Shown here in pieces: positions 39,806 to 57,768 of a stretch of DNA of 64,000 nt (the first letter of the stretch is position 1; each line of letters begins with the position of its first letter). Below the pieces are notes generated by a model. It was not told the DNA's origin and searched no databases. It saw only the letters and a program-made list of their open reading frames with translations. The stretch comes from Candidatus Adlerbacteria bacterium (GTDB taxonomy: Bacteria; Patescibacteriota; Minisyncoccia; Phycocordibacterales; SBAW01): the NCBI GenBank assembly GCA_026397405.1, contig JAPLUW010000001.1, forward strand, positions 43,138 to 107,137, in the 5' to 3' direction. A program made the position numbers and the translations under genes.

Positions 39806-40327
39806 CTACAGAATACCACGAGTTAGAAGCTTCTTTTTTCTTGCGTATACATATAAACCTGAAGCCCCCATACAAAAACCCGCTACCCCTGATACCACAT
39901 ACCAGAACCACACGTACTTTGTAGTATCTCCAGCAGCAACAGGTATTTGAAACGTTGCCTCGCCTAGCGTATCGTCGGCTGTTTCGTACCGCACCGAAAC
40001 GCTGTACACGCCGGGTGCCGCAAACGTATACACCAACCCCGTTGGCCCCGCGTCCATGTGCGCAATGCCGGCTGCAAACAACGTACCATTGTCTTGGTAG
40101 ATACGTACCCACACATTACGGTAAGGGGCATCGCCCGGTGTTGGCCCGTTTTGATATATTTTAAAATCAAAGTAGGTTGAGTCACCTGCAACCACTGGGT
40201 CCGGGCTATACCCTACGTCTAGTAAGTACTTCCCCACTATCTGCTCTACGCTTTTGCCGGTTGTATGCGCAAAGGCAGCGTACGGTATAAGCAGCAGGCT
40301 AATACTTACAAGTAAAAACTTTTTCAT
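39806..40327 (-). CDS. Secreted protein with a C-terminal TM anchor, hypothetical.
   Basis: Signal peptide MKKFLLVSISLLLIPYAAFA and C-terminal WFWYVVSGVAGFCMGASGLYVYARKKK. Confidence 0.45.
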   Translation of the reverse strand: MKKFLLVSISLLLIPYAAFAHTTGKSVEQIVGKYLLDVGYSPDPVVAGDSTYFDFKIYQNGPTPGDAPYRNVWVRIYQDNGTLFAAGIAHMDAGPTGLVYTFAAPGVYSVSVRYETADDTLGEATFQIPVAAGDTTKYVWFWYVVSGVAGFCMGASGLYVYARKKKLLTRGIL

Positions 40328-41547
40328 AGCATATCGGGCGAATTTTCTTCCGAGCATTGCTTCTGCAAGTTTTCCGGCAACGCAGCACATAATTTCCCTC
40401 TGTTTACTGTATCACTTCCGAAGGTAAAGTTTGCGAGATCTGCCAAATATCCAAAACAACTCTCTCGATACAGTTTTCCTGCGCTTGTACAAACAGCAAC
40501 AGCGGCCGGGCCTTGTGTTCTGTCTTCTTCGACAAATGCCTCGGCAAGGATCCCAAAACATTCCTGCCCAAGTGCTCGCGGTAAGGCACTGCAGACTGCC
40601 GCTTGTTTTTGTGGGTCACTAAGTGATGTGCGTGCCCCTATAGTAAGTGCAGTGCGATAGCAATTTGTTTGTGTTGCGGAGTCTTTTACTGTTGTACAAA
40701 ATGCTTGTACACCCGCAGCAGTTTTTAAGTCGTCGCGGAACAGTGGCCATCCTTCACCAAAACATACACTGCGCTCTTCTTCTGTTTTGTACGTACCACA
40801 AAACTGCGCGAGCGTGTCGCGTGTAGGTTTAACCGGAAGCCGCGCGATAAGTTCGTAGTCTTCTGGTTCAAGCGGTTGGAAAATTTGCATAAACACGCCA
40901 GAGATACACGTTTGACTATAGTCTTCGCCATTAGTTTTTACGGCTATTTTTTTACAGTACGAAACTGCTCGGGGCATGTCGGCGCCCGTTACAAACGTGA
41001 GTACGTGCCCCATGCCGTGGTAACACATTGCGCGGTCGAGGCTTGTCGGGCTCCAGTTGGCAGCAGGTTCGCATGCCCGAGCCAGGTCAGGCTCAATTGC
41101 ATCAATTTGTTCGGGAGGTAGCTCCGCCGCATGGAACCTCCCGACGATAACACCGTGGATATACCCGTTGGAACACACGCTGTCCGGTGGGTTTTTATGC
41201 ATCAAGCTCACCCATGCACCCGGGTCCCTGGCAACTTCGTCTTGTCCTATGTTGTGCGCAAGCACGTGGCAAAAACGATACTTGGTATCTTGCGTTTGAA
41301 TTTCACGTATGACCGAAAACACATCTTCAACTGGAACTACATATAAAAGACGAGGCACGGTGCGTTCGTAGCATCCGCCACTGTCTGGTTTCTGTGCACA
41401 ATACCAAACAAAAAATGTGGCTGTCGTCCGAGCTAGTGACTGGGACAACCTAGTGTTTGCAGAAACAACAAGAAACAATGCCAGCATACCTACCAAGACA
41501 GCCGCAGCAACATGTACCCAGACATTATGTTTTTTTTGCATATTCAT
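40324..41547 (-). CDS. Member 1 of a paralogous Cys-rich membrane-anchored family carrying C-x-H...G and C-x-HG-x-GH motifs (unknown function).
   Basis: N-terminal TM. CHVLAHNIG and CYHGMGHV motifs. About 18 Cys. Confidence 0.6.
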   Translation of the reverse strand: MNMQKKHNVWVHVAAAVLVGMLALFLVVSANTRLSQSLARTTATFFVWYCAQKPDSGGCYERTVPRLLYVVPVEDVFSVIREIQTQDTKYRFCHVLAHNIGQDEVARDPGAWVSLMHKNPPDSVCSNGYIHGVIVGRFHAAELPPEQIDAIEPDLARACEPAANWSPTSLDRAMCYHGMGHVLTFVTGADMPRAVSYCKKIAVKTNGEDYSQTCISGVFMQIFQPLEPEDYELIARLPVKPTRDTLAQFCGTYKTEEERSVCFGEGWPLFRDDLKTAAGVQAFCTTVKDSATQTNCYRTALTIGARTSLSDPQKQAAVCSALPRALGQECFGILAEAFVEEDRTQGPAAVAVCTSAGKLYRESCFGYLADLANFTFGSDTVNRGKLCAALPENLQKQCSEENSPDML

Positions 41548-41552
41548 AAAGT

Positions 41553-42620
41553 TTAGTCGCGACCCGGAGAAGGTACTTCTGACCTACCTGAAGCTGCTTT
41601 GCCACACATTGTGTACCACGGCTCAATGAGACCTACGCATACGCCTCGTGCGCGGCTGCGAGCGGACACCTCAGCAAAAAAAGAGTCGGCAGCAGTTACT
41701 ATACAAGAGCTTCGTTCATCAGTGCGTGCAGACGCCAAAGCACATAACGTGATTGTTTCTGCAACGTCATAGTCTGCAGCCATAGCAACGATAGTACCTA
41801 CTCCTTGAAAACATTTTGTATGCACACTCATTGCTGTGCCGCTACACAATGTTCCTATACGAGTAACTATGTCCCTAGAACTCTTTCCTTCACTTTTAAA
41901 ACTCTGATACCACCATTGCGGCTGCCAATAATAGCAAACCTCCGCATCTCCACCCGTGAATATATTGCACGGATACTGTAGCCCGTCTGGCTCAACACTG
42001 CGTGGCGGCATACCGGAAAACGAATGCATGGTGCGCATATTAAATTCCATAAACACTCCTCCTGGGCAGCCCCCAATAGGGTCGCTGTATGCAAGCCGTT
42101 TACATACATCAAGGCTTTCTATCAACGCGTCGTCCGTGTACCCAAGATACGACTCGATACCATGTCCAAGACCGTGAGTACAGGAAAGTGCTTTTCCAGG
42201 ACCAAGTGCTTTAAAGCAAGCCTCGTTGAGTGCCTCAACAATAGTAAGACCTTCCTGTTGTATAGCACGCCCTAAAAATTCGTGGAAACAACCGTACGCA
42301 AACAAATCATCGCAGGCAGAAAGTCCCGTCACTCCTTCTTGTTCATATAAACTTCCTCCAAAAATATGTGCCATGGTGTGTTGGTCCCCAGGTGTCGAGC
42401 TTGCATAGGCGCGCAGAAATTCTGTATACGCAATTTTGCCACCTACTCGCGCTATTTCTCCCCTCCAAAATGTCCCGGCCTCTCTAAAACCTTCATTGGT
42501 ATACAACGCAAATACAGGCACCTTCAAGGGGGTTGCGCGCATATGCGAAACAACAATACTTCCAAGAACCAGTGTTATGCACAGTAGAGCAACACTGTGG
42601 TAGCCCAGTGGGTGTTTCAT
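41553..42620 (-). CDS. Member 2 of the Cys-rich C-x-HG-x-GH family.
   Basis: N-terminal TM. CFHEFLGRA and CTHGLGHG, then C..GVFMEF. Confidence 0.6.
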   Translation of the reverse strand: MKHPLGYHSVALLCITLVLGSIVVSHMRATPLKVPVFALYTNEGFREAGTFWRGEIARVGGKIAYTEFLRAYASSTPGDQHTMAHIFGGSLYEQEGVTGLSACDDLFAYGCFHEFLGRAIQQEGLTIVEALNEACFKALGPGKALSCTHGLGHGIESYLGYTDDALIESLDVCKRLAYSDPIGGCPGGVFMEFNMRTMHSFSGMPPRSVEPDGLQYPCNIFTGGDAEVCYYWQPQWWYQSFKSEGKSSRDIVTRIGTLCSGTAMSVHTKCFQGVGTIVAMAADYDVAETITLCALASARTDERSSCIVTAADSFFAEVSARSRARGVCVGLIEPWYTMCGKAASGRSEVPSPGRD

Positions 42621-43795
42621 TTTGATGTGTGGGGTGTATACCTGTCAGTAAGGACCTGTACATATGAAGTGCACGAGCGTTCTGCTACAGGGTCTTGCAC
42701 ACCAAGAAGCGCGCAGAAATGTGCGGAAATTTTTGGATCATTTTCTCCACCCCAATAGAGAGAATCTTGTATACTTTCAACACATAGTGTTGTGTCGTGC
42801 GCATTACCAGAACGTGAGCACCACGACGTCATACGTGCAAGTTCCTCATCGGTCAGTGTAGTTATGTCTCGCGCATCGCTCTGCCGTGCCCACCAAATAA
42901 ATTCTTTGCCAAACGACCCTATACACACGTCACGGTCCTGGTCGCCCACTGGAAGTGCGCGACACAGCGAAAAGGCTTTTGGAAATACCGCAGGGTCAGG
43001 ATGATTTTTGTCACCACCCGCAGCCTCAATTAAATGTGGTGTGACGTAGATGTAACAAAAAGCGCGAACTTCTTTTGGCATATACGGTTTGTCGCACGGA
43101 GAGAGCGGGTCGGCAGTGGTCAAATACTGTGGGCGCATCGTACTCCACACTTCGGGGCTATGCCCACCACCGGAAATTAATTCCATAATGGCACCGCCAA
43201 CACATTGGGGATATTCTTCGAACTGTGCGGCCCGAGTGCCCGTCTTTTTACACAGCGCTATCGTTTTTTCTAAATTGTAATTTTCGTATGCAAGCACGCC
43301 GTGGCCGAGACCATGAAAGCACATGGTGTATGCACCACTGCCGCCTGGAGCTTTTTTGCAGGATTCTGAAATATCGTCTAAGGCTTTTTCGCCATAGTCG
43401 AGGAGTAAACCCACCACAACGGTGTGCGAACAGGCATTGCGAAATTCGTCGGTGCAATATTGTATGGCGTCTTTGCCATATTGTTTATACAGCTCATCAC
43501 CGACCGTGTGCCCAAGCAAATGGATATCTGTTTGGGGAGGCAGAGGTGCACGACGTAATATTTCAAACGCATACAGCGCGCCCTTTTTTACTGCAATGTC
43601 TTTAAAGTATGAGTTTAGTTCACTAAAACTATCTTCATGATGCACAATGTCGGTCACTTCCGGGTAGGGCCTTATTGCACGCACATAATAGCCATATCCG
43701 ACAATGACACACAGCAAAAAAAAAGGGATGAGTTTTGGCAGCATGCGCCGTAATGTCATGGAAACACGCATGCTATTTAGTATACTTGAGTACAA
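42617..43795 (-). CDS. Member 3 of the Cys-rich C-x-HG-x-GH family.
   Basis: N-terminal TM. CSHTVVVGLLLDYG and CFHGLGHGV, then C.GGAIMEL. The start may be the internal ATG at 43759. Confidence 0.6.
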   Translation of the reverse strand: MYSSILNSMRVSMTLRRMLPKLIPFFLLCVIVGYGYYVRAIRPYPEVTDIVHHEDSFSELNSYFKDIAVKKGALYAFEILRRAPLPPQTDIHLLGHTVGDELYKQYGKDAIQYCTDEFRNACSHTVVVGLLLDYGEKALDDISESCKKAPGGSGAYTMCFHGLGHGVLAYENYNLEKTIALCKKTGTRAAQFEEYPQCVGGAIMELISGGGHSPEVWSTMRPQYLTTADPLSPCDKPYMPKEVRAFCYIYVTPHLIEAAGGDKNHPDPAVFPKAFSLCRALPVGDQDRDVCIGSFGKEFIWWARQSDARDITTLTDEELARMTSWCSRSGNAHDTTLCVESIQDSLYWGGENDPKISAHFCALLGVQDPVAERSCTSYVQVLTDRYTPHTSK

Positions 43796-45411
43796 TGCAA
43801 AACCTCAAAATGGCAGGACTATGCGGGATTATGTTGGTCCTGCTTGCCAGCATAGGCAGCCTGGCGCGCCTCCGTGAGATGAAGATGTCAGTGGGAAACC
43901 CTGCCGCATATGCAGAAGCCCACGCACTTGACCCACTGTTTGCATTCCCAGGATTTGAAACAGCGGACCTAAAAACCCAAATAGCAGCATTTAAAATATC
44001 TGCCTCTGTAGCACTTCCTGCCTTTCCCGAAGGTGCCTATGTGCGAGACCATATATACCCATTTCGTTTTTTAGATCTATTACCACAAACAGAAGAGGCT
44101 AGGAGGCAAGTGCTTGCAGAACCAACGCTGGAACATGCTACGTTGTATCACACACTACTTCTCTCACTTATTGCAGCACACAAGCAAGACTTGGAAGACG
44201 CCGTTGCCCTGCTCGCCCACGACATGTCGGGCTCACACTATGAATTGTTTAGCGGCCAAACAACCGCCACTCATATACGAAGTGTACTAACAGAAACACT
44301 CAAGACAGACACGAGGGCAGAAGAAAAAGAAAAGGCTCGGTTCGCATGTCTTAGCGGTACAACCCGAGCGTGCGAGTCGCTGACAAAACTACAGCTGCAA
44401 TTTGGACCGCATGATGGTGGCCAAAATCTGCCCCCCACCGAAAGCGTTCTTAACAGCGTGCTAGAAAACCGTGATGCACTTACAGTTGCCTATCCATCGA
44501 TTGATACTCGACCCCTTATTTCGCTTACACAGTCTTCCTGCTTTACCAACTCACCTGCTTTTTTTGCAGTTGTTGGAGGAGTGTCGCGACTTTCAAACTT
44601 ACCGACGACACAGGCGGTCTATTTGAGTGACTTATATTTTGAAGATGTGCGAACCAGCACACAACCTTTCTACGCAGCTCTTCGGAAAGAGGGCGACTCT
44701 TTTACCTACCAACCATTCCGCGCATACTTGTGCCCCGACGCAGGTATAGATTTTGGAACAACAGTAACTATACAACGTGCATACGATACGCTGAGACAGA
44801 ATCCATTCACACCTACGGCACCCATCTCTCCCCTTTTCGAAACTCTGGTGAGCGCACAAAAAAACTTTACAGAAGCGCCTTTTCTTACAGACACTGCATA
44901 CGATGCATTTATTAGGGCGGCGACAGAAACTGTTCGCGGCACACCTAAGGACATACTTACAGAGAGGCTCGGCGGACAAACAGAAGTTCTGCGGCTTATA
45001 GAACTTGTAACAGAGGCCGAGACAAACAGTGCTGACTTTGCCGGCACCATTGGATATTTTGACGACCTCCAAATTGGCGGCTCTATTATCTACAATTTGC
45101 AGTCGAGCCCTACTATTGTGTACTTTATCTCCCGCGGTGGCCTGTCGCAACTCTATGCGCTCAACAACAAAACTATTTCTCCCACACCAGAACCTCTAAC
45201 TACACAAAGAGCAGCGCCCGCCGACCAGATATCAAAAGGAGAGGGAGTGCCGTATGTTTCGTATATGCAGACACACGACACTGAACCTGCGTTTTCCGAT
45301 ATCCGCACGTTACTTACACGAGACATTCCTGCGCGCGCACGAGTACTTTCCCCATCACTTACACAACTACAACAAAAACGTGCAGAATATGTTCGTGCGC
45401 GTACGCACTAA
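43795..45411 (+). CDS. Membrane-anchored extracellular hypothetical protein (about 538 aa).
   Basis: N-terminal TM (AGLCGIMLVLLASIGSLA), no recognisable domain. Start at 43795 or 43810. Confidence 0.5.
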   Translation: MQNLKMAGLCGIMLVLLASIGSLARLREMKMSVGNPAAYAEAHALDPLFAFPGFETADLKTQIAAFKISASVALPAFPEGAYVRDHIYPFRFLDLLPQTEEARRQVLAEPTLEHATLYHTLLLSLIAAHKQDLEDAVALLAHDMSGSHYELFSGQTTATHIRSVLTETLKTDTRAEEKEKARFACLSGTTRACESLTKLQLQFGPHDGGQNLPPTESVLNSVLENRDALTVAYPSIDTRPLISLTQSSCFTNSPAFFAVVGGVSRLSNLPTTQAVYLSDLYFEDVRTSTQPFYAALRKEGDSFTYQPFRAYLCPDAGIDFGTTVTIQRAYDTLRQNPFTPTAPISPLFETLVSAQKNFTEAPFLTDTAYDAFIRAATETVRGTPKDILTERLGGQTEVLRLIELVTEAETNSADFAGTIGYFDDLQIGGSIIYNLQSSPTIVYFISRGGLSQLYALNNKTISPTPEPLTTQRAAPADQISKGEGVPYVSYMQTHDTEPAFSDIRTLLTRDIPARARVLSPSLTQLQQKRAEYVRARTH

Positions 45412-46695
45412 CTATCTAGACACTTGAAGTCGTTTGCGTTTGTCTGTTGGTAATGTGCGTAATACTTCTACCGGCTCCGCAGTACATACAAGTGGCGAAA
45501 CGACACCGAGCTCCACAAGGTCGGCATATGTTCGTGTAGAACTTACCTGGATAGCACGCGCAAGCATGTCACTGTGTATATAAGGAGCGTGGTCAGTATA
45601 GAGCACGGTAGAAAGGCCGGGAGGGCTAATGCGTTCATTCCAGACAGCAGTAAAGTCTGCCACTTTGTATGGGAGTTTCAGCACAGCTTCTTCAAGCACA
45701 GCACTGCTCAGCCCCCCGTATGGCAATAGTTTTATCCTGTCCAAACCAACACGGCCGAGTATTTCAAACATGGGTTCTGTACTGCCACACGAACAGAGCC
45801 CGTGCTTGCGCACCACGGCGTAGTCGCCCGTGCGGTAGCGCACAAGAGAAAACGCCATGGGAGTAAGTGCTGTTATCACCACTTCGCCTTCAGCACCCTC
45901 CACCTGAGGAACTACATGGCCAGTTTCTGGGTCGACAAGTTCTAACTGGTACGTTGGGAACACGTGCATATAGTTTGGCGACACCGTGAGGTAACTCGGG
46001 CAGGTGTAGCCCACCGTTCCGTGGGCATCAACAGTCGCATACACAGCAGCAATAGTTGCATGCGGAAATGCTTCAACCAACTCTCTGCGTAAAGGCTCTG
46101 TCACGCGCTCACCCATTAGCACAATACGTTTCATACGCGCAGCAAGCGGCGTTCCTGCGACGTAGTGTCCAACGCCGGCAAGCGGTGAGGGGAACGAATA
46201 CATCGAGTCAACTCCTGCGGCTTCGGCACGTGCAAATGTTTTTTCCTGGTCGCGATAGTCGCCCGACACTGCGACGTGCCCACCCTCCTCTACTACATAT
46301 GTTTCGTGTACAGCATTTGACGGCGAATAAATGAGAATAGAATACGTATCTTCTTTTTTAAAATAGGGTCCAAAAAAACGGCCCGCAAGTGCTTCTTCCC
46401 CGCTAAAACCAAGCGACTTCCGGTAGCGCATTAGCTCTGGCTCTTCCGCCAGAGGAAAGGCAATCACTCCACGACCCGACGACCCAGATGTTGCCCGCAC
46501 AAAATGTATCATTTCTTTCGGGATAAAAATGCGGTCAAAAAAAGGAGTCGCGTCTATTTCCTCGCGTGTGAGCAGGGGGATGCCAGCAAGATCTTTTTCT
46601 ATATATGTTTTATAGTCGCTGCCATATTTGCGACGATAAAAATCCGAATACGGATTTAAAATAGCAAACTGCAGTGCGCGAGAAAGTAGTGTCAT
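45412..46695 (-). CDS. Adenylate-forming enzyme of the PaaK / coenzyme F390 synthetase-like family (ANL superfamily).
   Basis: P-loop-like ATSGSSGRGV and the adenylation motif YRTGDYAVV. 427 aa, typical PaaK size. Confidence 0.68.
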   Translation of the reverse strand: MTLLSRALQFAILNPYSDFYRRKYGSDYKTYIEKDLAGIPLLTREEIDATPFFDRIFIPKEMIHFVRATSGSSGRGVIAFPLAEEPELMRYRKSLGFSGEEALAGRFFGPYFKKEDTYSILIYSPSNAVHETYVVEEGGHVAVSGDYRDQEKTFARAEAAGVDSMYSFPSPLAGVGHYVAGTPLAARMKRIVLMGERVTEPLRRELVEAFPHATIAAVYATVDAHGTVGYTCPSYLTVSPNYMHVFPTYQLELVDPETGHVVPQVEGAEGEVVITALTPMAFSLVRYRTGDYAVVRKHGLCSCGSTEPMFEILGRVGLDRIKLLPYGGLSSAVLEEAVLKLPYKVADFTAVWNERISPPGLSTVLYTDHAPYIHSDMLARAIQVSSTRTYADLVELGVVSPLVCTAEPVEVLRTLPTDKRKRLQVSR

Positions 46696-47004
46696 GGTAG
46701 TGGGTCAAACACGACCACGCCCCCAGGCGGCGTGTACGGAGAAATTTCGCCGGACGTAGTGACAATAAGCCAACCTTTAATGTGCGAGAGAATTCCAAGG
46801 CTTTCGAGATGTGCCACAAGCTCATACAGGAGTGTGTCTGTTGTCACAAGTGCTTAACAACAATATTTCGTGCACGGGCCTCCACATATGCAGGGCGATG
46901 TAGTTGCAACACTGGGGGCAACAACAGGCCAAGACCCCTGGGGCGCACAGTATCAAGCAACCCGCCCAATGCTTTCCATTCCTGTTCGCCAGACATTAGA
47001 TACT

Positions 47005-47193
47005 CTAGTACACCCCGCCGCACCATACGTAGTAGATCTTCTCTGTAGATTTTCCTTGTGTTTGTTTTTCTGTTTCCTTGTCTTGAGAAGGGGTAACGGG
47101 ACAGAAGAGTTCTTGTTTTTCTTTATGTGCAACAATCCCAATTGTCAGAACAGGAAGGAAAAACCCAAGCCCTATAAGAAATTTCTTCATCAT
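47005..47193 (-). CDS. Small signal-peptide protein (62 aa), possibly co-transcribed with the upstream paralog gene.
   Basis: MMKKFLIGLGFFLPVLTIGIVA..., 33 nt downstream of the stop of the 47227..47979 gene. No strong RBS. Confidence 0.25.
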   Translation of the reverse strand: MMKKFLIGLGFFLPVLTIGIVAHKEKQELFCPVTPSQDKETEKQTQGKSTEKIYYVWCGGVY

Positions 47194-47226
47194 AGTGTAA
47201 TACCTACAGTATAACGCACACAACAC

Positions 47227-47979
47227 TTAGTGGAATAGCCCACCAAAAAATGACGCAACTGATCCAAAGAAATTACTGTTAAAACTTCCAAATGACGTTT
47301 TTTTGTATCCGGCTGGGTAGATATACTCCCCTTTCTTTACTAGTGTTGTATCGGTCTTTTCGACTTCCGGGACTATTGGATTGGCGAGGATGTAGGGGTC
47401 GTGGCGAATGCCGGTGACTTGCCAGGAGACTCGGGCCCCTGGGGTGCCACCCGCGATGCCGAACTGGTTATTTTGCACCTCGCGACTTATATAGAGGTTC
47501 GGCATCGGCTCCCCGAGCGGCCGCACTAAGTAACGATAGTCTTTATTCAACACTTCAAAATACTTTGGGAGGGAGACCGCAGCTTCCCCGTTAGCATCCA
47601 ATGTTGCGATACCATCGTAGATGTTTTTAACGTCCGGCGACTCAACGAACGAGTGGTAGAGAAGTTTGTTAGCGGGGTCGAGGGGGTGGTCTATGACAAA
47701 CGAACCTGATCCTTTGGAAATAGAGCCTGTTACTGCAACAGTTTTCGATGCAGTAGCATTTTTTGTAAAGGTTGTCTGATACGTTGACTGTGAATAGTAC
47801 GTACTTTGTGAGTAATACGTTGACTGCGAATAGTACGTTCCTTGGTAGTACGGCTGCGAATAATATGCCGACTCAGCATAGTAGTCTCCTTGTGAATACG
47901 CATGGGTAGCATGCGGAATAAGCACGCAGGCAAGCAGCGAGAACGCCGAGACCGTATAGGTATATATATTATTTCTCAT
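47227..47979 (-). CDS. Secreted protein, paralog A of a triplicated family (conserved FVIDHPLDP...HSFVESPDVKNIYDGIATLD domain and identical C-terminal 40 aa).
   Basis: Signal peptide. Tyr/Gln/Ser-rich repeats (YYSQSTYYSQSTYYSQSTY). C-terminus ARVSWQVTGIRHDPYILANPIVPEVEKTDTTLVKKGEY. Its start ATG overlaps the paralog B stop in ATGAGAAATAA. Confidence 0.65.
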   Translation of the reverse strand: MRNNIYTYTVSAFSLLACVLIPHATHAYSQGDYYAESAYYSQPYYQGTYYSQSTYYSQSTYYSQSTYQTTFTKNATASKTVAVTGSISKGSGSFVIDHPLDPANKLLYHSFVESPDVKNIYDGIATLDANGEAAVSLPKYFEVLNKDYRYLVRPLGEPMPNLYISREVQNNQFGIAGGTPGARVSWQVTGIRHDPYILANPIVPEVEKTDTTLVKKGEYIYPAGYKKTSFGSFNSNFFGSVASFFGGLFH

Positions 47980-48529
47980 AGCCTTCAAATAAATACTCCC
48001 CTTTCTTTACTAGTGTTGTATCGGTCTTTTCGACTTCCGGGACTATTGGGTTTGCGAGGATGTAGGGGTCGTGGCGAATGCCGGTGACTTGCCAGGAGAC
48101 TCGGGCTCCTGGGGTGCCTCCTGCAATAGTAAACTGATTTTTTGTTTTGTCTGCCCCCACTTTCAAATATATATTTGGGTCAGCATGCTCAAGCGGGAAA
48201 AATTGATATCTAAAATCTTTATTGAGCGCGTCGAAATACTCTGGCAGCTGTACTATTACCTCTCCCTTGTCATCCAATGTCGCAATACCATCGTAGATGT
48301 TTTTAACATCGGGCGACTCGACGAACGAGTGGAAGAGCAGTTTGTTAGTAGGGTCCAGTGGATGGTCTATAACAAACGTACCTGAGCCTTTAGAAAGAGC
48401 TCCGGTGATTGCAAGATTTCCCGCAAATTTTACGTTGCCTACCAACTTCACCCCGAACGCAATGGTAGGTACGCACAACAACAGGAATGCGAAGATATGT
48501 TTTGTATATTTGAAATTATTATTTCTCAT
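47969..48529 (-). CDS. Secreted protein, paralog B of the triplicated family.
   Basis: Same conserved domain and identical C-terminal block. Its start overlaps the paralog C stop in the same ATGAGAAATAA junction. Confidence 0.65.
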   Translation of the reverse strand: MRNNNFKYTKHIFAFLLLCVPTIAFGVKLVGNVKFAGNLAITGALSKGSGTFVIDHPLDPTNKLLFHSFVESPDVKNIYDGIATLDDKGEVIVQLPEYFDALNKDFRYQFFPLEHADPNIYLKVGADKTKNQFTIAGGTPGARVSWQVTGIRHDPYILANPIVPEVEKTDTTLVKKGEYLFEGYEK

Positions 48530-49091
48530 ACCCTTCAAATAAATACTCCCCTTTCTTTACTAGTGTTGTATCGGTCTTTTCGACTTCCGGGACTATTGGA
48601 TTGGCGAGGATGTAGGGGTCGTGGCGAATGCCGGTGACTTGCCAGGAGACTCGGGCCAGGGGTACTCCTCCTGATATTTTAAATTGTATCGCACCAAAGA
48701 GGCCAAACCATCGGCGAGCAACTTCTTTTTTCAAAAATAAATTCGGCATAGACGCTCCAATAGGTGTCGCTAGATATCTAACATCTTGATTCAACGCTAG
48801 AAAATAGTCGGGTAGATTGATGGTTGCTTCACCTTTGTCGTCGAGCGTCGCAATACCATCGTAGATGTTTTTAACATCTGGTGACTCAACGAATGAGTGA
48901 AAGAGTAATTTGTTAGCTGGGTCGAGCGGGTCGTCGATAACGAAGGTGCCGGAGCCTTTGGAGAGTGCACCTATGACACTCGCGCTGCCAGTTACAGACA
49001 CAGCTGTGGTAAGGGTAACGGCCTGCGCGCTCGAGATAAGCGCGAAAAACAGCCCCAAACTACCGACAAGTCTGTAGAGAGAAAATCTCAT
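48519..49091 (-). CDS. Secreted protein, paralog C of the triplicated family.
   Basis: Signal peptide MRFSLYRLVGSLGLFFALISSAQA and the same conserved domain and C-terminal block. Confidence 0.65.
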   Translation of the reverse strand: MRFSLYRLVGSLGLFFALISSAQAVTLTTAVSVTGSASVIGALSKGSGTFVIDDPLDPANKLLFHSFVESPDVKNIYDGIATLDDKGEATINLPDYFLALNQDVRYLATPIGASMPNLFLKKEVARRWFGLFGAIQFKISGGVPLARVSWQVTGIRHDPYILANPIVPEVEKTDTTLVKKGEYLFEGYEK

Positions 49092-49156
49092 ATACACAAG
49101 TATATCATGAGCGTTTTGCCACAATTTTATAGGGGAAAATCGAGTATACTTTCCAC

Positions 49157-50629
49157 ATGCAAACGCGCAGAAAAAGTATGCTCGGCGCTATAGCGTTGTT
49201 TCTCTGTGCCGCCGGAATAGCCTTCTACACTACCCACAAGCACCATACCGTAGTAGTCACACGCACGGCAGCGGGGTTTATACCCAAAACTGTACTTATA
49301 CACAGAGGTGATACCGTGCGATTTGTGTCGACTACAGGCGCACCATTTTGGCCCCTGTCGGACCCTCACTCTTCGCAGGGCATTTCTCTCGCCTTTGACC
49401 CTGGGAGGGCACTTACACCAAACGAGCAGTGGTCGTTTACATTTGAACAGGCTGGAGTATGGAATTTCCACGACCGTCTGCTGGCAGAGATGCGCGGTTC
49501 AGTGCTTGTTGAAGGAGAGAAAGACGAGAGTGTAAAAAACTGTCTGTCTTCATCGCAAGATACAACAAAAGGCTATTGTTGGGCTACTGAAATAACAGCA
49601 ACAATAAAACAAGAGGGACTTTCTGCCGGGTTTGACTCCGTGCACGACTACTACGAAACAAGTCTCGAATTTCAAAACCAATGTCACGACGTTATGCATG
49701 TACTGGGGAGCGCCACATACAGCGAGTATAAAAAAACAGGGACACATATTGCACGGCAAGAAACCAGTTACTGCGGCTACGGTTTTTACCATGGGTTTAT
49801 GGAACAGATGCTTGTAGAACTTGGCAGAGATTATCTGCATGAAGCAAATTCCTATTGCATAGGGTTGCTCATCGACCCTGCGCTTCCCTCCCGTGCCGCC
49901 GGACACTCTGCTGCTGCGGCATGCTTCCACGGTATTGGACACGCACTACTTGATTCACTTCCGGCAACTATATGGGGAAACGATAAAGCTATGACAGCCG
50001 AGGCCACAATAGAGTGCGAAGCCGTGACAGACGAGCCACAATGGCGCGTGCGGTGTGTGTCGGGAGTTTTCAATTCCCTCTCTAATGCCGAAGGTTCAAA
50101 AAACTACAGCCTATCATACAGCGTGAGCGACCCAACCGCCCTGTGTCGTACACAAAAAGCCGAATACCAACAATCGTGCTACAACGAACTGGCTATAGGC
50201 TACACACATTACGCAAACTACAGCGACACCGAGGCACTTTCGTTAATTGCACATTTGCCCGGGGACGCAAAATACTGGAGCCTTATGGCATATTTTGACG
50301 ACACCGTACGACACAACTTGCAAGACAAAACACTGGCACAACTGTACGAAGAGACTGTGGCATTCCCAGAAGAAAAAGAGCGGGAGGCAGTTATTGACGG
50401 TGTAGCAAACGCACTCTCATCTGGAGGCAAACCGGGTGGAGAATATCTACAAATGCTTACCTATTGTTCCCTCTTTCCAATATCTAATGCACGGACGCAT
50501 TGTTACAGGCGCACGATAGACACATTGAGTGCACTGTATAGCAACACCGCCCTGAGTGCTATATGCAAGACTATCCCTGTTGGCGACCAAGCGGTATGCA
50601 CTTCTTCGCTTAGAACAAAAAATTTATAG
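49157..50629 (+). CDS. Member 4 of the Cys-rich C-x-HG-x-GH family, with an N-terminal degenerate cupredoxin-like domain.
   Basis: N-terminal TM. GDTVRFVSTTGAPFWPLSDPH...WSFTFEQAGVWNFHDRLLAEMRGSVLVE (cupredoxin pattern without the Cys ligand). CHDVMHVLG and CFHGIGHAL. Confidence 0.62.
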   Translation: MQTRRKSMLGAIALFLCAAGIAFYTTHKHHTVVVTRTAAGFIPKTVLIHRGDTVRFVSTTGAPFWPLSDPHSSQGISLAFDPGRALTPNEQWSFTFEQAGVWNFHDRLLAEMRGSVLVEGEKDESVKNCLSSSQDTTKGYCWATEITATIKQEGLSAGFDSVHDYYETSLEFQNQCHDVMHVLGSATYSEYKKTGTHIARQETSYCGYGFYHGFMEQMLVELGRDYLHEANSYCIGLLIDPALPSRAAGHSAAAACFHGIGHALLDSLPATIWGNDKAMTAEATIECEAVTDEPQWRVRCVSGVFNSLSNAEGSKNYSLSYSVSDPTALCRTQKAEYQQSCYNELAIGYTHYANYSDTEALSLIAHLPGDAKYWSLMAYFDDTVRHNLQDKTLAQLYEETVAFPEEKEREAVIDGVANALSSGGKPGGEYLQMLTYCSLFPISNARTHCYRRTIDTLSALYSNTALSAICKTIPVGDQAVCTSSLRTKNL

Positions 50630-50633
50630 CTGT

Positions 50634-51518
50634 ATGCAGCGTATACTAAAAATATTCTTGTTCCTTGGAGGAGTGCTAGTAGTTTTTTTTCTCTACCATA
50701 CACTACACTCACCTACTGTAGTTGAAAATGCGAGAGTGAAGTATTGGGAGAGGCGTATACATTCCATAGGTGCCACTGGGGCTTACAATGAACTCCTATC
50801 GAGCACTACTGAACATTTTGAAGGTCACTATTTTGGCACTGCGCTGTATCAAGAACAAGGAATTTCTGGAATGACTGTGTGCGATGACAAACTACAGTAT
50901 GCATGTTTACATGAAATGTACGGCCGCGCACTTGCGGAATATGGTCTCTCTATAATAAAAAAGCTTGATACCGTATGCACGGAGAGCGCAGACCCTCTTG
51001 TGTGCGAACATGGGATAGGACACGGTCTGGTGGGATATTTTGGATACACCAAAACCTCAGCACTACAAAGTGTAGCCGCGTGCAAAAGTATTTCTGAACA
51101 TGGGGATGTGGTGGGAGCCTGCGAGTCTGGTTTGTTTATGGAATATTTTAATCGGACTATGCTTCCAGGCACGGAACCCTTTCCTGTATCAGAGGCGGCG
51201 CTGTATGCACCATGCGAGGAACTTGCACTTGGGGAACATGACATGCCGCAATGCGTATTTGAATTTCCTCGTCTGTGGTTTTTGTCACTATTTAAGAACG
51301 AAAGAACCCCTGAACATTTGAAGCAGCTCGGCCTGTATTGCCAGAAATATGACTCTATCCCCGCCCTACGCACAGTGTGTGCGCGCGGAGCAGCCGAAAT
51401 AGTTGTACACGCACAAACTCTAGAGGAATCAAAAAAAATCTGCAGCCAAATATTTACAGATATAGACAAAAAAAATCTCTGCGAGCTCCAAGTAGAAAGA
51501 TTGTTTAATCTCCAATGA
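50634..51518 (+). CDS. Member 5 of the Cys-rich C-x-HG-x-GH family.
   Basis: N-terminal TM. CLHEMYGRALAEYG and CEHGIGHGLVGY, then C.SGLFMEY. Confidence 0.6.
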   Translation: MQRILKIFLFLGGVLVVFFLYHTLHSPTVVENARVKYWERRIHSIGATGAYNELLSSTTEHFEGHYFGTALYQEQGISGMTVCDDKLQYACLHEMYGRALAEYGLSIIKKLDTVCTESADPLVCEHGIGHGLVGYFGYTKTSALQSVAACKSISEHGDVVGACESGLFMEYFNRTMLPGTEPFPVSEAALYAPCEELALGEHDMPQCVFEFPRLWFLSLFKNERTPEHLKQLGLYCQKYDSIPALRTVCARGAAEIVVHAQTLEESKKICSQIFTDIDKKNLCELQVERLFNLQ

Positions 51519-52756
51519 ACACAAAAAAACGCCTGCGGCACATATTCTGGGTAGCACTACTTACAGTAATTTTTGGTGTTGGAATATATTTTTTTAGCCA
51601 ACAGTCCTTCGTATACCATGCGACCGTATGTGACTACTCTCATACCTCTGCGCCGGACAAAATTGAATGTTGGTATGGACTGCTCGATACATCTCTCGCA
51701 ACAGGAGGTGCAGCAAACATGCTCCACGACTACGCATACTTATATAGTCATTACCCCAATATATTAGTTCCCGAAAATTGCCATGCCGACGCCCATTGGA
51801 TGGGAGACCAGATGTACTCTGCACTACTCCACAGTGGAGAGAGTCTGGAAACAGTCGACTTCCCCGAGACCGCGAATGTTTGTACGTTTGGTGTTCCTCA
51901 CGGTTTTTTCATGCACTTGTTTGCAGACCATCCAAACGCACCATTTGTAACTGCAACATGTAGTAGTTTTGAAACACGTTTCTCGAATATATTTCCAACA
52001 ATAAACGTACAGTGTTACCACGCTGCCGGGCATGGGTTTGTCCTTGCGCATGCACACGACACATCCAAGGACGCACACCAGCTTGCAGCAGATACGCTCG
52101 GGCAATGCGACACTCTGCCCAACACACTGACAGACATAGAACGTCAGACATGCTACCGGGGTGTATTTACGGCCTTACTTGAATGGGCTGCCCAAAAACA
52201 ACACGGCCTTTCCTTTGACAAGTTGCACCCGTTTGCACTCTGCACAACGCTCACCAACTCATGGAAGCGCATGTGTTACGCAGGCGTTGCCGACCGGTTT
52301 TTTAGAGAAGCTAGTCTTACGGTACCTTCCCTTATAGAACACATTGCCCAGGTAGAAGATCCCTCACTGCGCGTCCAGGCGTTTCGACCGGCAATGCGAG
52401 TACTTATTTTGCGAGCCATGCCGCACAACTCTTACCTGTCTCTTATACCTGCATGCGCAACTGTCTCAAAAGAGTTATTTGTTGCGTGTATTACTATATT
52501 CCCGAGCGCACTTTTTACCGGAGGTTTTCCAGAGCAAGAATATCCAAAAGCACTTGCCTTGTGTGCGTCAAACCAAATACACGCACTGGACGCTGAAAAA
52601 CTTTGTTATCTTTCTGTAGCAAAACAGCTAGCCCTCTTTTACCCACCAGAAAAACTACAGGCCTTCACTGACCCTCACGTACAGCAAGCAATTGCACAGC
52701 TGACAGAGGCGGGGAAATTAACCACGACCGAATTAGACTTGCCCAACATCCACTAA
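51515..52756 (+). CDS. Member 6 of the Cys-rich C-x-HG-x-GH family (divergent: CYHAAGHGF).
   Basis: N-terminal TM. CHADAHWMGDQMY and CYHAAGHGFV, then C.RGVF. 4-bp ATGA overlap with the previous gene. Confidence 0.58.
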   Translation: MNTKKRLRHIFWVALLTVIFGVGIYFFSQQSFVYHATVCDYSHTSAPDKIECWYGLLDTSLATGGAANMLHDYAYLYSHYPNILVPENCHADAHWMGDQMYSALLHSGESLETVDFPETANVCTFGVPHGFFMHLFADHPNAPFVTATCSSFETRFSNIFPTINVQCYHAAGHGFVLAHAHDTSKDAHQLAADTLGQCDTLPNTLTDIERQTCYRGVFTALLEWAAQKQHGLSFDKLHPFALCTTLTNSWKRMCYAGVADRFFREASLTVPSLIEHIAQVEDPSLRVQAFRPAMRVLILRAMPHNSYLSLIPACATVSKELFVACITIFPSALFTGGFPEQEYPKALALCASNQIHALDAEKLCYLSVAKQLALFYPPEKLQAFTDPHVQQAIAQLTEAGKLTTTELDLPNIH

Positions 52757-55721: not shown

Positions 55722-57272
55722 CTACTGTGGTGTACAGAGTTTGTCCGTTCCGGGGATGTCCGCCACTAATGCACATGCAGCGGCACGGGCTACTTCGCCA
55801 TAGTTATTTATAAGCGTCGTAACAAGCGTGTTGGCACAGAGCGTTTTTTCACCTGACGTGAGTGTACGTACGTGACACAACTCCGCGCCTCGCGCACCTT
55901 CAGTTCCCGGCGCGCCGTTAAAGACAACTCCGCGCAGAAGGCCAGCAATACAATATGAATGGAGCGTTGTATCAACAACAGAGGCACACAACCCTATAAG
56001 TTTTTTATTCGACATGTCGACATTGTTTGCGGCCGAAACAAACGCAACACTTGTTATTGCAGAAAACATGTACGTCCCATCTAACCACGTGCGCGCAGCA
56101 CTCATAACCGACTGAAGTGAGGTGTCAGTATTGTGGTTAGCAATAACAAGTGTTTCTTTTGCCATTTCCCATACACATGCATCCTTCTGCCATGTTTCCT
56201 GCAAAGGTGCGCACAACGCAAATGGGTGGTCGAGCGAAAAAACATCTGTATAGACAGTCTGTAGATTTTGAACATTGACCCATGCTTTAAATACGTCGAA
56301 CGCGCCGTCGGCACAGCGGAACTTCCCTTCTGGGGAAGGCATCGCGGCACACTCGGCAACTCCCATGTTCAGAAGAGTCTGTAGGTTCCTACTGTTGTTA
56401 CTCAAGTCTGGTCGTGTTGTAAGGAGATATTCCATGACACTGTGCCCAATGCCGTGCATACACTGCAGACCTGCGACAGTTTTTTCGCCAACGCGCTTGG
56501 CTTCCGCCGTACAAAATGCAAGTGCAGGCTGTATGTCACCATGCCTTTCCATAAGAAAACTTTCAAGATAGCCGTGATAAAACCCTTGGCCGCAATACAT
56601 AGTGTTAGCCGCGGGAAGATGGTCGCCATATTTTTTATACGCCATAAGTCCCAAGTCGTGTAAAAACGAATGGCACTCTGGGCGGAACTCCGGATACTTT
56701 TCATATACAGAGGCAACCTCATCCATCGCGCCACTCAAACCTTTTTTATCGAGCGCAAGCAAAATGTGCTGGCGGTAACATGCTGCACGGCCACTTTGTT
56801 CAGGTTCATCACAGACCCCAAGCACATCATATATTGCTTCTCCTTTTGCTCCTGGCGGGACAACAATAATTACACCGATGTCGAGCCCTATGTGGTCGTG
56901 AAAGCTCCAGTGTCCATCTTTATCAAATGTAAAACTCCAGGCACTTGTTGCCCCAACGGGTCCTTTAGAATCAAATGCCGAATATATAGTATGGAACGGG
57001 TGCAAGTCCGACGCAGGCCAAAAAGAGTTTCCTGCTGTTGTACGAAATACAACTGTTGTATTGCGGCTGATATAGATTTCTGACGGAACAAAACCGTTTT
57101 TTGTGAGAGTAATTGTTACCGTGCTCTTTCCCGTCAAGTCGAGCGGACCCCGATGCATATAGGTGTATATGCCGTATATACACAAGCCAGAGACCACCAT
57201 TAAACACACAAAAAATATCGCGTACTTCGAGCGCATGCAGTCCAGTGTAGCGCATGCTATCCTCTTACGCAT
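55722..57272 (-). CDS. Member 7 of the Cys-rich C-x-HG-x-GH family, with an N-terminal degenerate cupredoxin-like domain.
   Basis: N-terminal TM. TVTITLTKNGFVPSEIYISRNTTVVFRTTAGNSFWPASDLHPFH...WSFTFDKDGHWSFHDHIGLDIGVIIVV. CHSFLHDLG and CMHGIGHSVMEY. Confidence 0.62.
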   Translation of the reverse strand: MRKRIACATLDCMRSKYAIFFVCLMVVSGLCIYGIYTYMHRGPLDLTGKSTVTITLTKNGFVPSEIYISRNTTVVFRTTAGNSFWPASDLHPFHTIYSAFDSKGPVGATSAWSFTFDKDGHWSFHDHIGLDIGVIIVVPPGAKGEAIYDVLGVCDEPEQSGRAACYRQHILLALDKKGLSGAMDEVASVYEKYPEFRPECHSFLHDLGLMAYKKYGDHLPAANTMYCGQGFYHGYLESFLMERHGDIQPALAFCTAEAKRVGEKTVAGLQCMHGIGHSVMEYLLTTRPDLSNNSRNLQTLLNMGVAECAAMPSPEGKFRCADGAFDVFKAWVNVQNLQTVYTDVFSLDHPFALCAPLQETWQKDACVWEMAKETLVIANHNTDTSLQSVMSAARTWLDGTYMFSAITSVAFVSAANNVDMSNKKLIGLCASVVDTTLHSYCIAGLLRGVVFNGAPGTEGARGAELCHVRTLTSGEKTLCANTLVTTLINNYGEVARAAACALVADIPGTDKLCTPQ

Positions 57273-57768
57273 GAGCCTCTCTCCGAAGGATGCAAAGGAG
57301 TTGTCGCAGCTGCAGACCTTGCTTGGTATATTTCTGGGGCTCTATTTTTTAGCGGGGCTTTCAACATTTTTCCTTTTTTCTTCAGCGCACGACAAAAGCT
57401 TCCCGCCTTTTTTTCACTGGTTTTTGTTTGCACTCGTTCCAAACGAACATTTCTCTACACAGTACACGGTGCAGCTAACTGCCTACCGAGGTAAAACATT
57501 CACTCCTCCAGAATTATTCGGCGAAGCAAATGATATCATTCCCGAAGCAACAGCAAACCGTGCACGTGACGGCATTCGACATTTAGGAAAAGCACTTGTG
57601 GCGGGCGACACTGCAAGGGCCGACGTAGTACGAGCAGAGCTCGAAGCTGCGTACTTTCCAAAAGATCTTTCCTGGCAAGTGGTTAAAATAACTTACGACC
57701 CCATAGAACGTTTTAAAACCGGCACACTTGAAAAAGTCGACGTGCTTGGTACCTACCACACTAAATGA
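57271..57768 (+). CDS. Hypothetical membrane-anchored protein (about 165 aa).
   Basis: ORF 57163..57768. Start placed at the ATG at 57271 to avoid overlapping the divergent gene. TM (LLGIFLGLYFLAGLSTFFLF). Confidence 0.4.
   Translation: MSLSPKDAKELSQLQTLLGIFLGLYFLAGLSTFFLFSSAHDKSFPPFFHWFLFALVPNEHFSTQYTVQLTAYRGKTFTPPELFGEANDIIPEATANRARDGIRHLGKALVAGDTARADVVRAELEAAYFPKDLSWQVVKITYDPIERFKTGTLEKVDVLGTYHTK

Follow-up and report, generated by a model that had tools for sequence, protein, structure and literature searches.

Three tandem genes on the minus strand of a 64,000-nucleotide stretch of DNA (the window), which lies on a single contig of a Candidatus Adlerbacteria metagenome-assembled genome (MAG), encode proteins with predicted signal peptides and a common domain related to phage tail fibres. 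The best overall explanation of these genes, here named C, B and A in the order in which they follow each other, is an ancient, translationally coupled operon of secreted fibre-related proteins with recent gene conversion between its members, a reading to which we assign a probability of roughly 0.75.

The C-B-A operon, its age and its junctions

Three intact open reading frames (ORFs) lie within positions 47227-49124 in the order C-B-A, encoding proteins that are 63-67% identical overall. By visual inspection, all of them open with a Sec-type signal peptide (C, MRFSLYRLVGSLGLFFALISSAQA followed by V; B, MRNNNFKYTKHIFAFLLLCVPTIAFG followed by V; A, MRNNIYTYTVSAFSLLACVLIPHATHA followed by Y). 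The ATG starts of B and C match the public annotation of the source genome. The region preceding the common domain is a linker of ~20 amino acids in B and C and a Tyr-rich segment of 40 amino acids in A, the latter containing YYSQST repeats with a period of 18 nucleotides (nt) in 3.3 copies (47780-47839). An anchor is not recognisable in either B or C. The initial annotation, which had described three paralogous signal-peptide genes in tandem with YYSQSTY repeats in paralogue A, was accurate in both respects. The features of the locus are as follows:

48519-49091, minus strand: gene C, 190 amino acids; signal peptide, short beta linker, ~135-amino-acid domain, class-C insert of eight residues (RRWFGLFG); corresponds to P0068 (190 amino acids, NT019_00480)
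48519-48529, minus strand: C/B junction; start codon of B falls within the final codons and the stop of C; ATGAGAAATAA, 11-nt overlap
47969-48529, minus strand: gene B, 186 amino acids; signal peptide, linker GNVKFAGNLAITG, domain; 100% identical to P0001 (186 amino acids)
47969-47979, minus strand: B/A junction; start codon of A falls within the final codons and the stop of B; ATGAGAAATAA, 11-nt overlap
47227-47979, minus strand: gene A, 250 amino acids; signal peptide, Tyr-rich repeats, domain, aromatic/Gly-rich C-terminal tail of 23 amino acids
47779-47898, minus strand: Tyr-rich low-complexity segment of A (YSQGDYYAESAYYSQPYYQGTYYSQSTYYSQSTYYSQSTY); a class-A feature, also present in other loci of the Candidate Phyla Radiation (CPR)
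47230-47298, minus strand: C-terminal tail of A (TSFGSFNSNFFGSVASFFGGLFH); class A only

The triplet is almost certainly an ancient three-gene operon of Paceibacteria-type CPR bacteria. We collected loci from genome and metagenome collections by a profile scan and limited the count to complete CPR loci (n=14), finding exactly three tandem copies in the arrangement short-short-long (C-B-A) in 14/14 loci of Paceibacteria-type relatives. Loci of other phyla contain one copy, rarely two or three, always located C-terminally in a long ORF. Two related Adlerbacteria genomes (L001/L002 and L003/L004) carry syntenic triplets with one-to-one orthologues of A, B and C, and in a tree the copies of deep CPR lineages cluster by position (A, B, C) and not by genome. 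Each class has a signature of its own: class C an eight-residue insert KRWFGLFG, the motif RYLATP and the end GEYLFPE(F/L)YxK; class B the linker GNVKFAGNLAITG, the motif RYQFF and the end GECLFEPLCK; class A Tyr-rich repeats after the signal peptide, the motif RYQLKPIG and an aromatic/hydrophobic tail of ~20 residues. A strict test for class-specific residues over all 10 genomes returned zero positions because the Adlerbacteria clade is partly homogenised; after separating the deep lineages from Adlerbacteria, 14 and 34 class-specific positions were obtained, with the class-specific residues clustering at ~109-131 and at the termini.

The class B end GECLFEPLCK, found in L006-L014, contains two conserved cysteines that could form a disulphide. 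B of the Adlerbacteria clade, including that of the window, ends in GEYLFEGYEK instead and has no cysteines, the embedded start of A being kept at an offset of -10 and not -9. In some CPR lineages a glycine-rich domain of ~250 amino acids (Pfam Gly_rich_2) has been gained by one subunit, where it separates the signal peptide from the conserved domain; the carriers are L009 (5170-6474, class B), L014 (6498-7883, class A) and P0121, and the extended subunit thus varies.

Both junctions of the window contain the sequence TATGAGAAATAA, and at each the ATG of the following gene opens an overlap of 11 nt with the end of the gene before it. We listed 20 junctions from 10 CPR loci plus the window and found that an in-frame ATG precedes the last base of the upstream stop codon by 3-13 nt in 15 of these 20 and follows it by 2 nt in three more. 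The embedded ATG is kept despite differences in the C-terminal peptide, appearing as CTATGC in ...PLCK* and as TATGAR in ...GYEK*. No well-spaced Shine-Dalgarno sequence was found by eye before the ATGs of the window, which together with the conserved overlap fits a termination-reinitiation mechanism. The overlaps which the initial annotation had taken to imply coupling are real and kept across distant lineages, the embedded ATG typically preceding the end of the upstream gene by 9-13 nt, and translational coupling of C, B and A is likely. The three genes would be read as one unit, a ribosome terminating at the upstream gene re-initiating at the overlapping ATG, and the three products would be made in a fixed proportion.

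Probable gene conversion of the 3' block

The near-identity of the 3' DNA of all three genes, on which the initial annotation had rested its case, turned out to be sharper than claimed, A and C matching exactly over 115 nt and B deviating by two mismatches. The putative conversion tracts are:

47323-47437, minus strand: tract in A, 115 nt, exact match to the C copy; A is the probable donor
48543-48657, minus strand: tract in C, codons ARVSWQ...KKGEY; 115 nt exact and 0/38 synonymous codon differences versus A
47993-48106, minus strand: tract in B, 2 mismatches, at 48050 and 48053

The match of B and C extends over their extreme 3' ends and the junction, 47967-48106 and 48517-48656 aligning over 140 nt with 3 mismatches. 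Beyond the block, DNA identity between the paralogues is 64-78%, and the longest identical run reached by chance in 20,000 permutations of the variable sites was 45 nt versus the 115 nt observed. For the statistics the block was taken as 38 codons (ARVSWQVTGIRHDPYILANPIVPEVEKTDTTLVKKGEY), within which the paralogue pairs of the window show 0, 2 and 2 synonymous codon differences, as against 22-25 differing codons among the ~50 that encode identical amino acids in the domain core, which is equally conserved (Fisher p = 2.4e-8, 7.6e-6 and 6.5e-5 for block versus core).

The sister genome L001 does not show this pattern. Its block differs at 14-17 of 35 codons between paralogues, corresponding to 80-82% nucleotide identity, and the contrast of block and core is absent (p = 0.37-1.0). 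The flanks of L001 that were aligned by blastn are ~90% identical to the window, and the block of the window is nearest to that of L001 A with 89.5% identity, close to the value for the flanks, suggesting A as the probable donor. The paralogues are older than the tract, and the tract combines near-zero synonymous divergence with diverged flanks and absence from the sister lineage, as expected for gene conversion. We consider it very likely that the identical block reflects a recent gene conversion specific to the window lineage, in agreement with one of the two causes named in the initial annotation. As the amino acids of the L001 block are already identical between paralogues at 35-36/38 positions, conversion in the window would have altered essentially synonymous sites only.

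Traces of further events are found within the operon and in other genomes. C of the window and of L001 ends in the B-type GEYLFEGYEK followed by a B-type junction, and C of L004 and L005 keeps the class-C ending; this marks a putative older B-to-C conversion of the extreme 3' end and the junction, common to the window and L001. Exact tracts are present between C and B of L005 (134 nt, in the 5' core), between B and A of L007 (89 nt) and between B and A of L014 (44 nt in the same 3' block, which is 86% identical overall), compared to the usual longest identical runs of 8-20 nt. The tree groups the A, B and C copies of the Adlerbacteria clade together, apparently a sign of older concerted evolution. 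As far as these alignments tell, patchy conversion is a recurring property of the operon. We propose a model according to which non-reciprocal homologous recombination would have overwritten ~115 nt of C and B with a copy probably derived from A, an earlier conversion common to the sister genome having copied the extreme 3' end and junction of B onto C. The block would attract conversion since its amino acids are the most constrained and its DNA is consequently the most similar, leaving the protein unaltered.

A known precedent is the RecA-dependent gene conversion by which duplicated genes of bacteria evolve in concert, e.g. tufA/tufB of Salmonella. The triplet resembles this case in that old paralogues contain tracts of almost zero synonymous divergence, which are lineage-specific and placed where similarity peaks. 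It differs in that its tracts are short (44-134 nt) and patchy with a position varying by genome, and in that its genes are directly adjacent and overlapping.

Four other explanations of the identical ends were weighed. The first, already raised in the initial annotation, is that an assembler or polisher homogenised a conserved stretch of ~115 nt over the three copies, the window being derived from one MAG contig with no other contig encoding the same proteins. We regard such an artefact as improbable, since the tract is shorter than a typical read and flanked by unique sequence, the B tract retains two private differences, tracts of 44-134 nt occur at other positions in independently assembled triplets, and the older conversion of the 3' end of C is common to two different assemblies, i.e. 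the window and L001.

The second explanation, a programmed cassette exchange that would vary the surface or antigens as in the pilE/pilS or vls systems, is still less probable. It draws on the relation of these secreted proteins to phage receptor-binding fibres, on the recurrence of conversion tracts in several genomes and on the mosaic structure of the locus between sister genomes, with identities of 60-100% in 60-nt windows and a proportion of synonymous differences (pS) of 0.05-0.97. However, exchange affects the most conserved part and leaves the protein as it is, the variable regions are specific to each class and conserved among orthologues, and no further, silent or partial copies were found in the 64-kb window. 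The ratio of nonsynonymous to synonymous divergence (dN/dS) between orthologues is 0.09-0.12 for all three genes, which are under purifying selection. The genes flanking the triplet are mosaic too, with pS of 0.63 for an F1 gene encoding 490 amino acids (F1_490; the F1 family is described below), 0.39 for a PaaK-like gene and 0.10 for F1_413, suggesting regional homologous recombination between diverged populations and not a locus-specific machinery. Silent donor cassettes, exchange of variable regions and diversifying selection, the traits of pilE/pilS- and vls-like systems, are not seen in the 64-kb window and the orthologue comparison, and the shuffling of surface-protein cassettes put forward in the initial annotation is thus not supported.

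Third, selection on DNA or RNA might hold the nucleotide identity, e.g. for a structured element or a ribosome-loading site of the next gene, in line with the block stopping ~30 nt short of each junction and with the identity of B and C continuing through the junction. This is very improbable given that the block of A has no paralogue downstream, that the copies of the sister genome do not keep these nucleotides (80-82% identity), that the fold energy of the block is no better than that of shuffled sequences (z = +0.93) and that Rfam has no match at the block. The least probable explanation is a recent tandem triplication, implied by the term triplicated in the initial annotation, the identical ends being all that rapid divergence of the 5' and middle parts left intact in young duplicates: it fits the identical ends and diverged bodies when this genome is viewed alone, but orthologous A, B and C classes with class-specific indels exist in every related genome examined, including deep CPR lineages, core synonymous sites are near saturation between paralogues (~25/50 codons differ) and the identical block is absent from the sister genome.

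A second repeated block of ~70 bp had been described as well. What exists is an exact stretch of 23-32 nt (47609-47631, 48285-48307 and 48853-48875) within a domain core that is ~75% identical; it does not form a homogenised block. We rejected the 23-nt exact match as a second conversion tract because the same nucleotides (AAAAACATCTACGAT) recur in the triplets of many other genomes, which points to amino-acid constraint and codon preference and not to homogenisation.

The mosaic structure has a sharp boundary within A. Its signal peptide and Tyr-rich region (47720-47960 versus 6560-6800 of L001) are 97-100% identical to L001 with a pS of 0.05, and the adjoining domain core is ~75% identical with a pS of 0.75-0.87, which implies a presumed recent recombination event between strains or between paralogues. 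Comparison of 45412-52756 to L001 gave synonymous divergences (dS) of 1.37 for F1_490, 1.41 for gene C, 0.55 for the PaaK-like gene, 0.11 for F1_413 and 0.17 for a 558-amino-acid gene, the whole neighbourhood of ~7 kb being a patchwork of recombined segments that extends beyond the triplet.

A domain in common with phage tail proteins

A, B and C have no match above threshold in Pfam-A, NCBIfam, PHROGs or PDB sequences. We retrieved 1,940 near relatives, all being hypothetical proteins of ~180 amino acids from Adlerbacteria, Kaiserbacteria and other Parcubacteria. When 1.84 billion representatives, chosen at 50% identity, were searched with a profile, 15,582 clusters (E <= 0.001) were returned, in which the domain is mostly located at the C-terminus of proteins of 400-1300 amino acids. 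These long homologues originate from Bacteroidota, Acidobacteriota, Planctomycetota, Chloroflexota and others, carry signal peptides and fibre-like repeats, and in their N-terminal portions match tail-fibre PHROGs, Laminin_G_3, Gly_rich_2 or DUF7483.

The AlphaFold2 (AF2) model of B shows a beta-rich domain of ~9 strands with a predicted local distance difference test (pLDDT) score of 84 and a predicted template modelling (pTM) score of 0.54. The best Foldseek matches in the PDB are weak and comprise a phage receptor-binding protein and a tailspike (best E 0.019). A Foldseek search of BFVD gave predicted phage proteins with E down to 1.5e-10 and 26-35% identity, including the minor tail protein of Arthrobacter phage Mufasa8 and a tail fibre-like protein of Prochlorococcus phage P-SSM2. 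The phage domain is also reached by tblastn (E 5e-9 to 1e-8), and hhalign against Mufasa8 gp19, annotated as minor tail protein, resulted in a probability of 97.7% with E 2.4e-12 and 35% identity over 119 columns. The gene of Mufasa8 gp19 directly follows the tape-measure gene and two minor-tail genes. By these profile and model comparisons the ~135-amino-acid domain is homologous to the C-terminal part of phage minor-tail and tail-fibre proteins.

The proteins of the window and the phage tail proteins (gp19 of Arthrobacter phages Mufasa8 and Sonali; cyanophages P-SSM2 and S-TIM54) have in common the motifs F-x-(I/M)-DHP, H-x-x-x-ESP, LD-x-x-GE...LP-x-YF-x-AL and W-x-V as well as a beta-rich fold. 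Unlike the phage proteins, those of the window are stand-alone proteins with a signal peptide and without a stalk; a position at the distal end of a long fibrous protein is found in the non-CPR homologues of 400-1300 amino acids but not in A, B and C. Unlike the phage genes, the genes of the window are chromosomal with conserved synteny, and are present in three paralogous copies versus one. They have no PHROG match, and there are no phage genes around them, the neighbours in 10 loci being conserved cellular genes and not a phage tail or prophage module.

The mosaic adhesive trimer (MAT) fibres of Bdellovibrio bacteriovorus, i.e. trimeric, phage-tail-fibre-like proteins with beta-sandwich tips on the surface of the predator (PMC10769870), are the closest characterised cellular analogue, being non-viral tail-fibre-like surface proteins of a bacterium that lives on bacteria. 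A, B and C lack the MAT N-domain (model NF053851; no NCBIfam match) followed by a beta-helix/beta-prism stalk, and the solved MAT tip fold was not recovered by Foldseek against the PDB at E <= 0.001 or by profile search of PDB sequences. The long non-CPR homologue P0200 shows a weak N-terminal match to NF053851, with 21.6 bits versus a cut-off of 60. MAT tips are diverse, whereas the domain of the window is highly conserved. Neither the domain nor the triplet was found described when the literature was searched for the motifs IDHPLDP and HSFVESPD and for the topic.

Several points weigh against an operon of secreted fibre-related subunits as proposed here. The signal-peptide calls rest on inspection by eye. 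The pTM of the AF2 monomer is just 0.54 despite the pLDDT of 84, and Foldseek against the PDB returned no solved structure at E <= 0.001. The domain is 50-60% identical between phyla, a degree of conservation that is unusual for a receptor-binding tip and is more readily expected of a module for assembly or anchoring than of one that determines specificity. Other phyla sometimes carry two to three tandem long fibre genes with the domain, presumably encoding independent homomers, and tandem copies alone therefore do not imply a heteromer. Exact-protein look-ups found no other contig or second assembly encoding the proteins of the window, so that a consensus or polishing artefact in the 115-nt block keeps a small probability.

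Neighbouring genes and a possible surface assembly

The triplet is accompanied by a family of genes named F1:

49133-52753, plus strand: three F1 paralogues, conserved neighbours; uncharacterised, membrane-anchored, all-alpha, Cys/His-rich
40327-43804 and 55725-57341, both minus strand: further F1 copies, seven paralogues in total in the window

F1 proteins comprise 320-490 amino acids with an N-terminal transmembrane helix and invariant His/Cys motifs such as C-x-H-x-x-G-H. They have no match in Pfam or NCBIfam and no informative match in the PDB, a homology search returned 2 matches only, and the AF2 model is a generic alpha-solenoid (pLDDT 78). F1 genes adjoin the A/B/C triplet in 10/10 CPR loci examined, with 1-5 copies, and F1 is a candidate partner of A/B/C. 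The 490-amino-acid copy has an extra, weakly matching cupredoxin/plastocyanin-like domain at its N-terminus.

Further genes surround the operon. An ORF of 62 amino acids with one N-terminal hydrophobic helix (MMKKFLIGLGFFLPVLTIGIV...) lies 34 nt downstream of A (47005-47193, minus strand), and a 62-amino-acid gene is called at the equivalent position of L001 (7322-7510). A PaaK/F390-synthetase-like adenylating enzyme is encoded at 45412-46695 on the minus strand (NF045666, E 6e-20, below cut-off), and the PaaK-like gene is kept downstream of the triplet in four loci of the Adlerbacteria clade (the window, L001, L004 and L005). Five deep CPR lineages (L006, L007, L009, L011, L012) have a very large ORF (>1100-1600 amino acids, family F3) directly upstream of C, which in L007 contains LVIVD beta-propeller repeats; F3 is not at this position in Adlerbacteria.

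It is quite conceivable, albeit somewhat short of probable, that A, B and C share this evolutionary history but that each forms homo-oligomers independently of the others, as a surface or secreted module with a partner of its own, the three being merely co-expressed. Phage fibres are homotrimers, the long homologues of other phyla are usually single-copy so that the domain can act as a homomer, and tandem pairs or triples of long fibre genes occur elsewhere (L127, L157, L081). The strict conservation of three copies with start/stop overlap across CPR lineages and the lack of a recognisable anchor in B and C argue against separate modules.

Tentatively, A, B and C may instead assemble into one hetero-oligomer on the surface, possibly a heterotrimer of A, B and C. 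The evidence is indirect: the three classes are always found together and coupled, extra segments by which the others could be tethered exist in A alone, and the class-specific residues concentrate in one region (~109-131). A heterotrimer is the most economical form of this model because phage fibres and MAT proteins are trimers. Each of the three proteins would then be a non-redundant subunit of a common assembly on the cell surface, in the simplest case a 1:1:1 heterotrimeric knob derived from a normally homotrimeric fibre-tip module, tethered via the extra segments of A and/or the neighbouring membrane-anchored F1 proteins, and the knob may serve contact to other cells or to a host. Complement C1q, in which three clustered paralogous genes A, B and C encode an obligate heterotrimer with globular beta-sandwich heads, offers an analogy only, as no homology was detected and the heterotrimer is a hypothesis here. 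More speculative still, and rather doubtful as a whole, is a scenario in which, in Paceibacteria-type CPR bacteria, a homotrimeric phage tail-fibre tip module was turned into an obligate A/B/C heterotrimeric knob, kept at 1:1:1 by coupling, tethered by A and/or F1 solenoid proteins and used for host or partner contact, with patchy conversion keeping the common assembly interface identical while the class-specific loops stay distinct.

As a summary, gene conversion between tandem paralogues is ordinary biology, and the locus provides a clean natural example of conversion tracts the position of which follows amino-acid constraint. The strictly conserved triplet of an uncharacterised, very widespread phage-fibre-related domain in the CPR, a large group of uncultured bacteria, is, as far as literature searches show, undescribed. 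This domain, which counts 15,582 representative clusters but lacks a Pfam entry and a solved structure, forms a link between the fibre proteins of cells and the tail proteins of phages. The ultra-small CPR bacteria presumably live attached to other cells, and to our knowledge almost nothing is known about the attachment of those outside Saccharibacteria. A conserved, secreted, fibre-tip-like complex would be a concrete candidate for structural and localisation work on CPR attachment.

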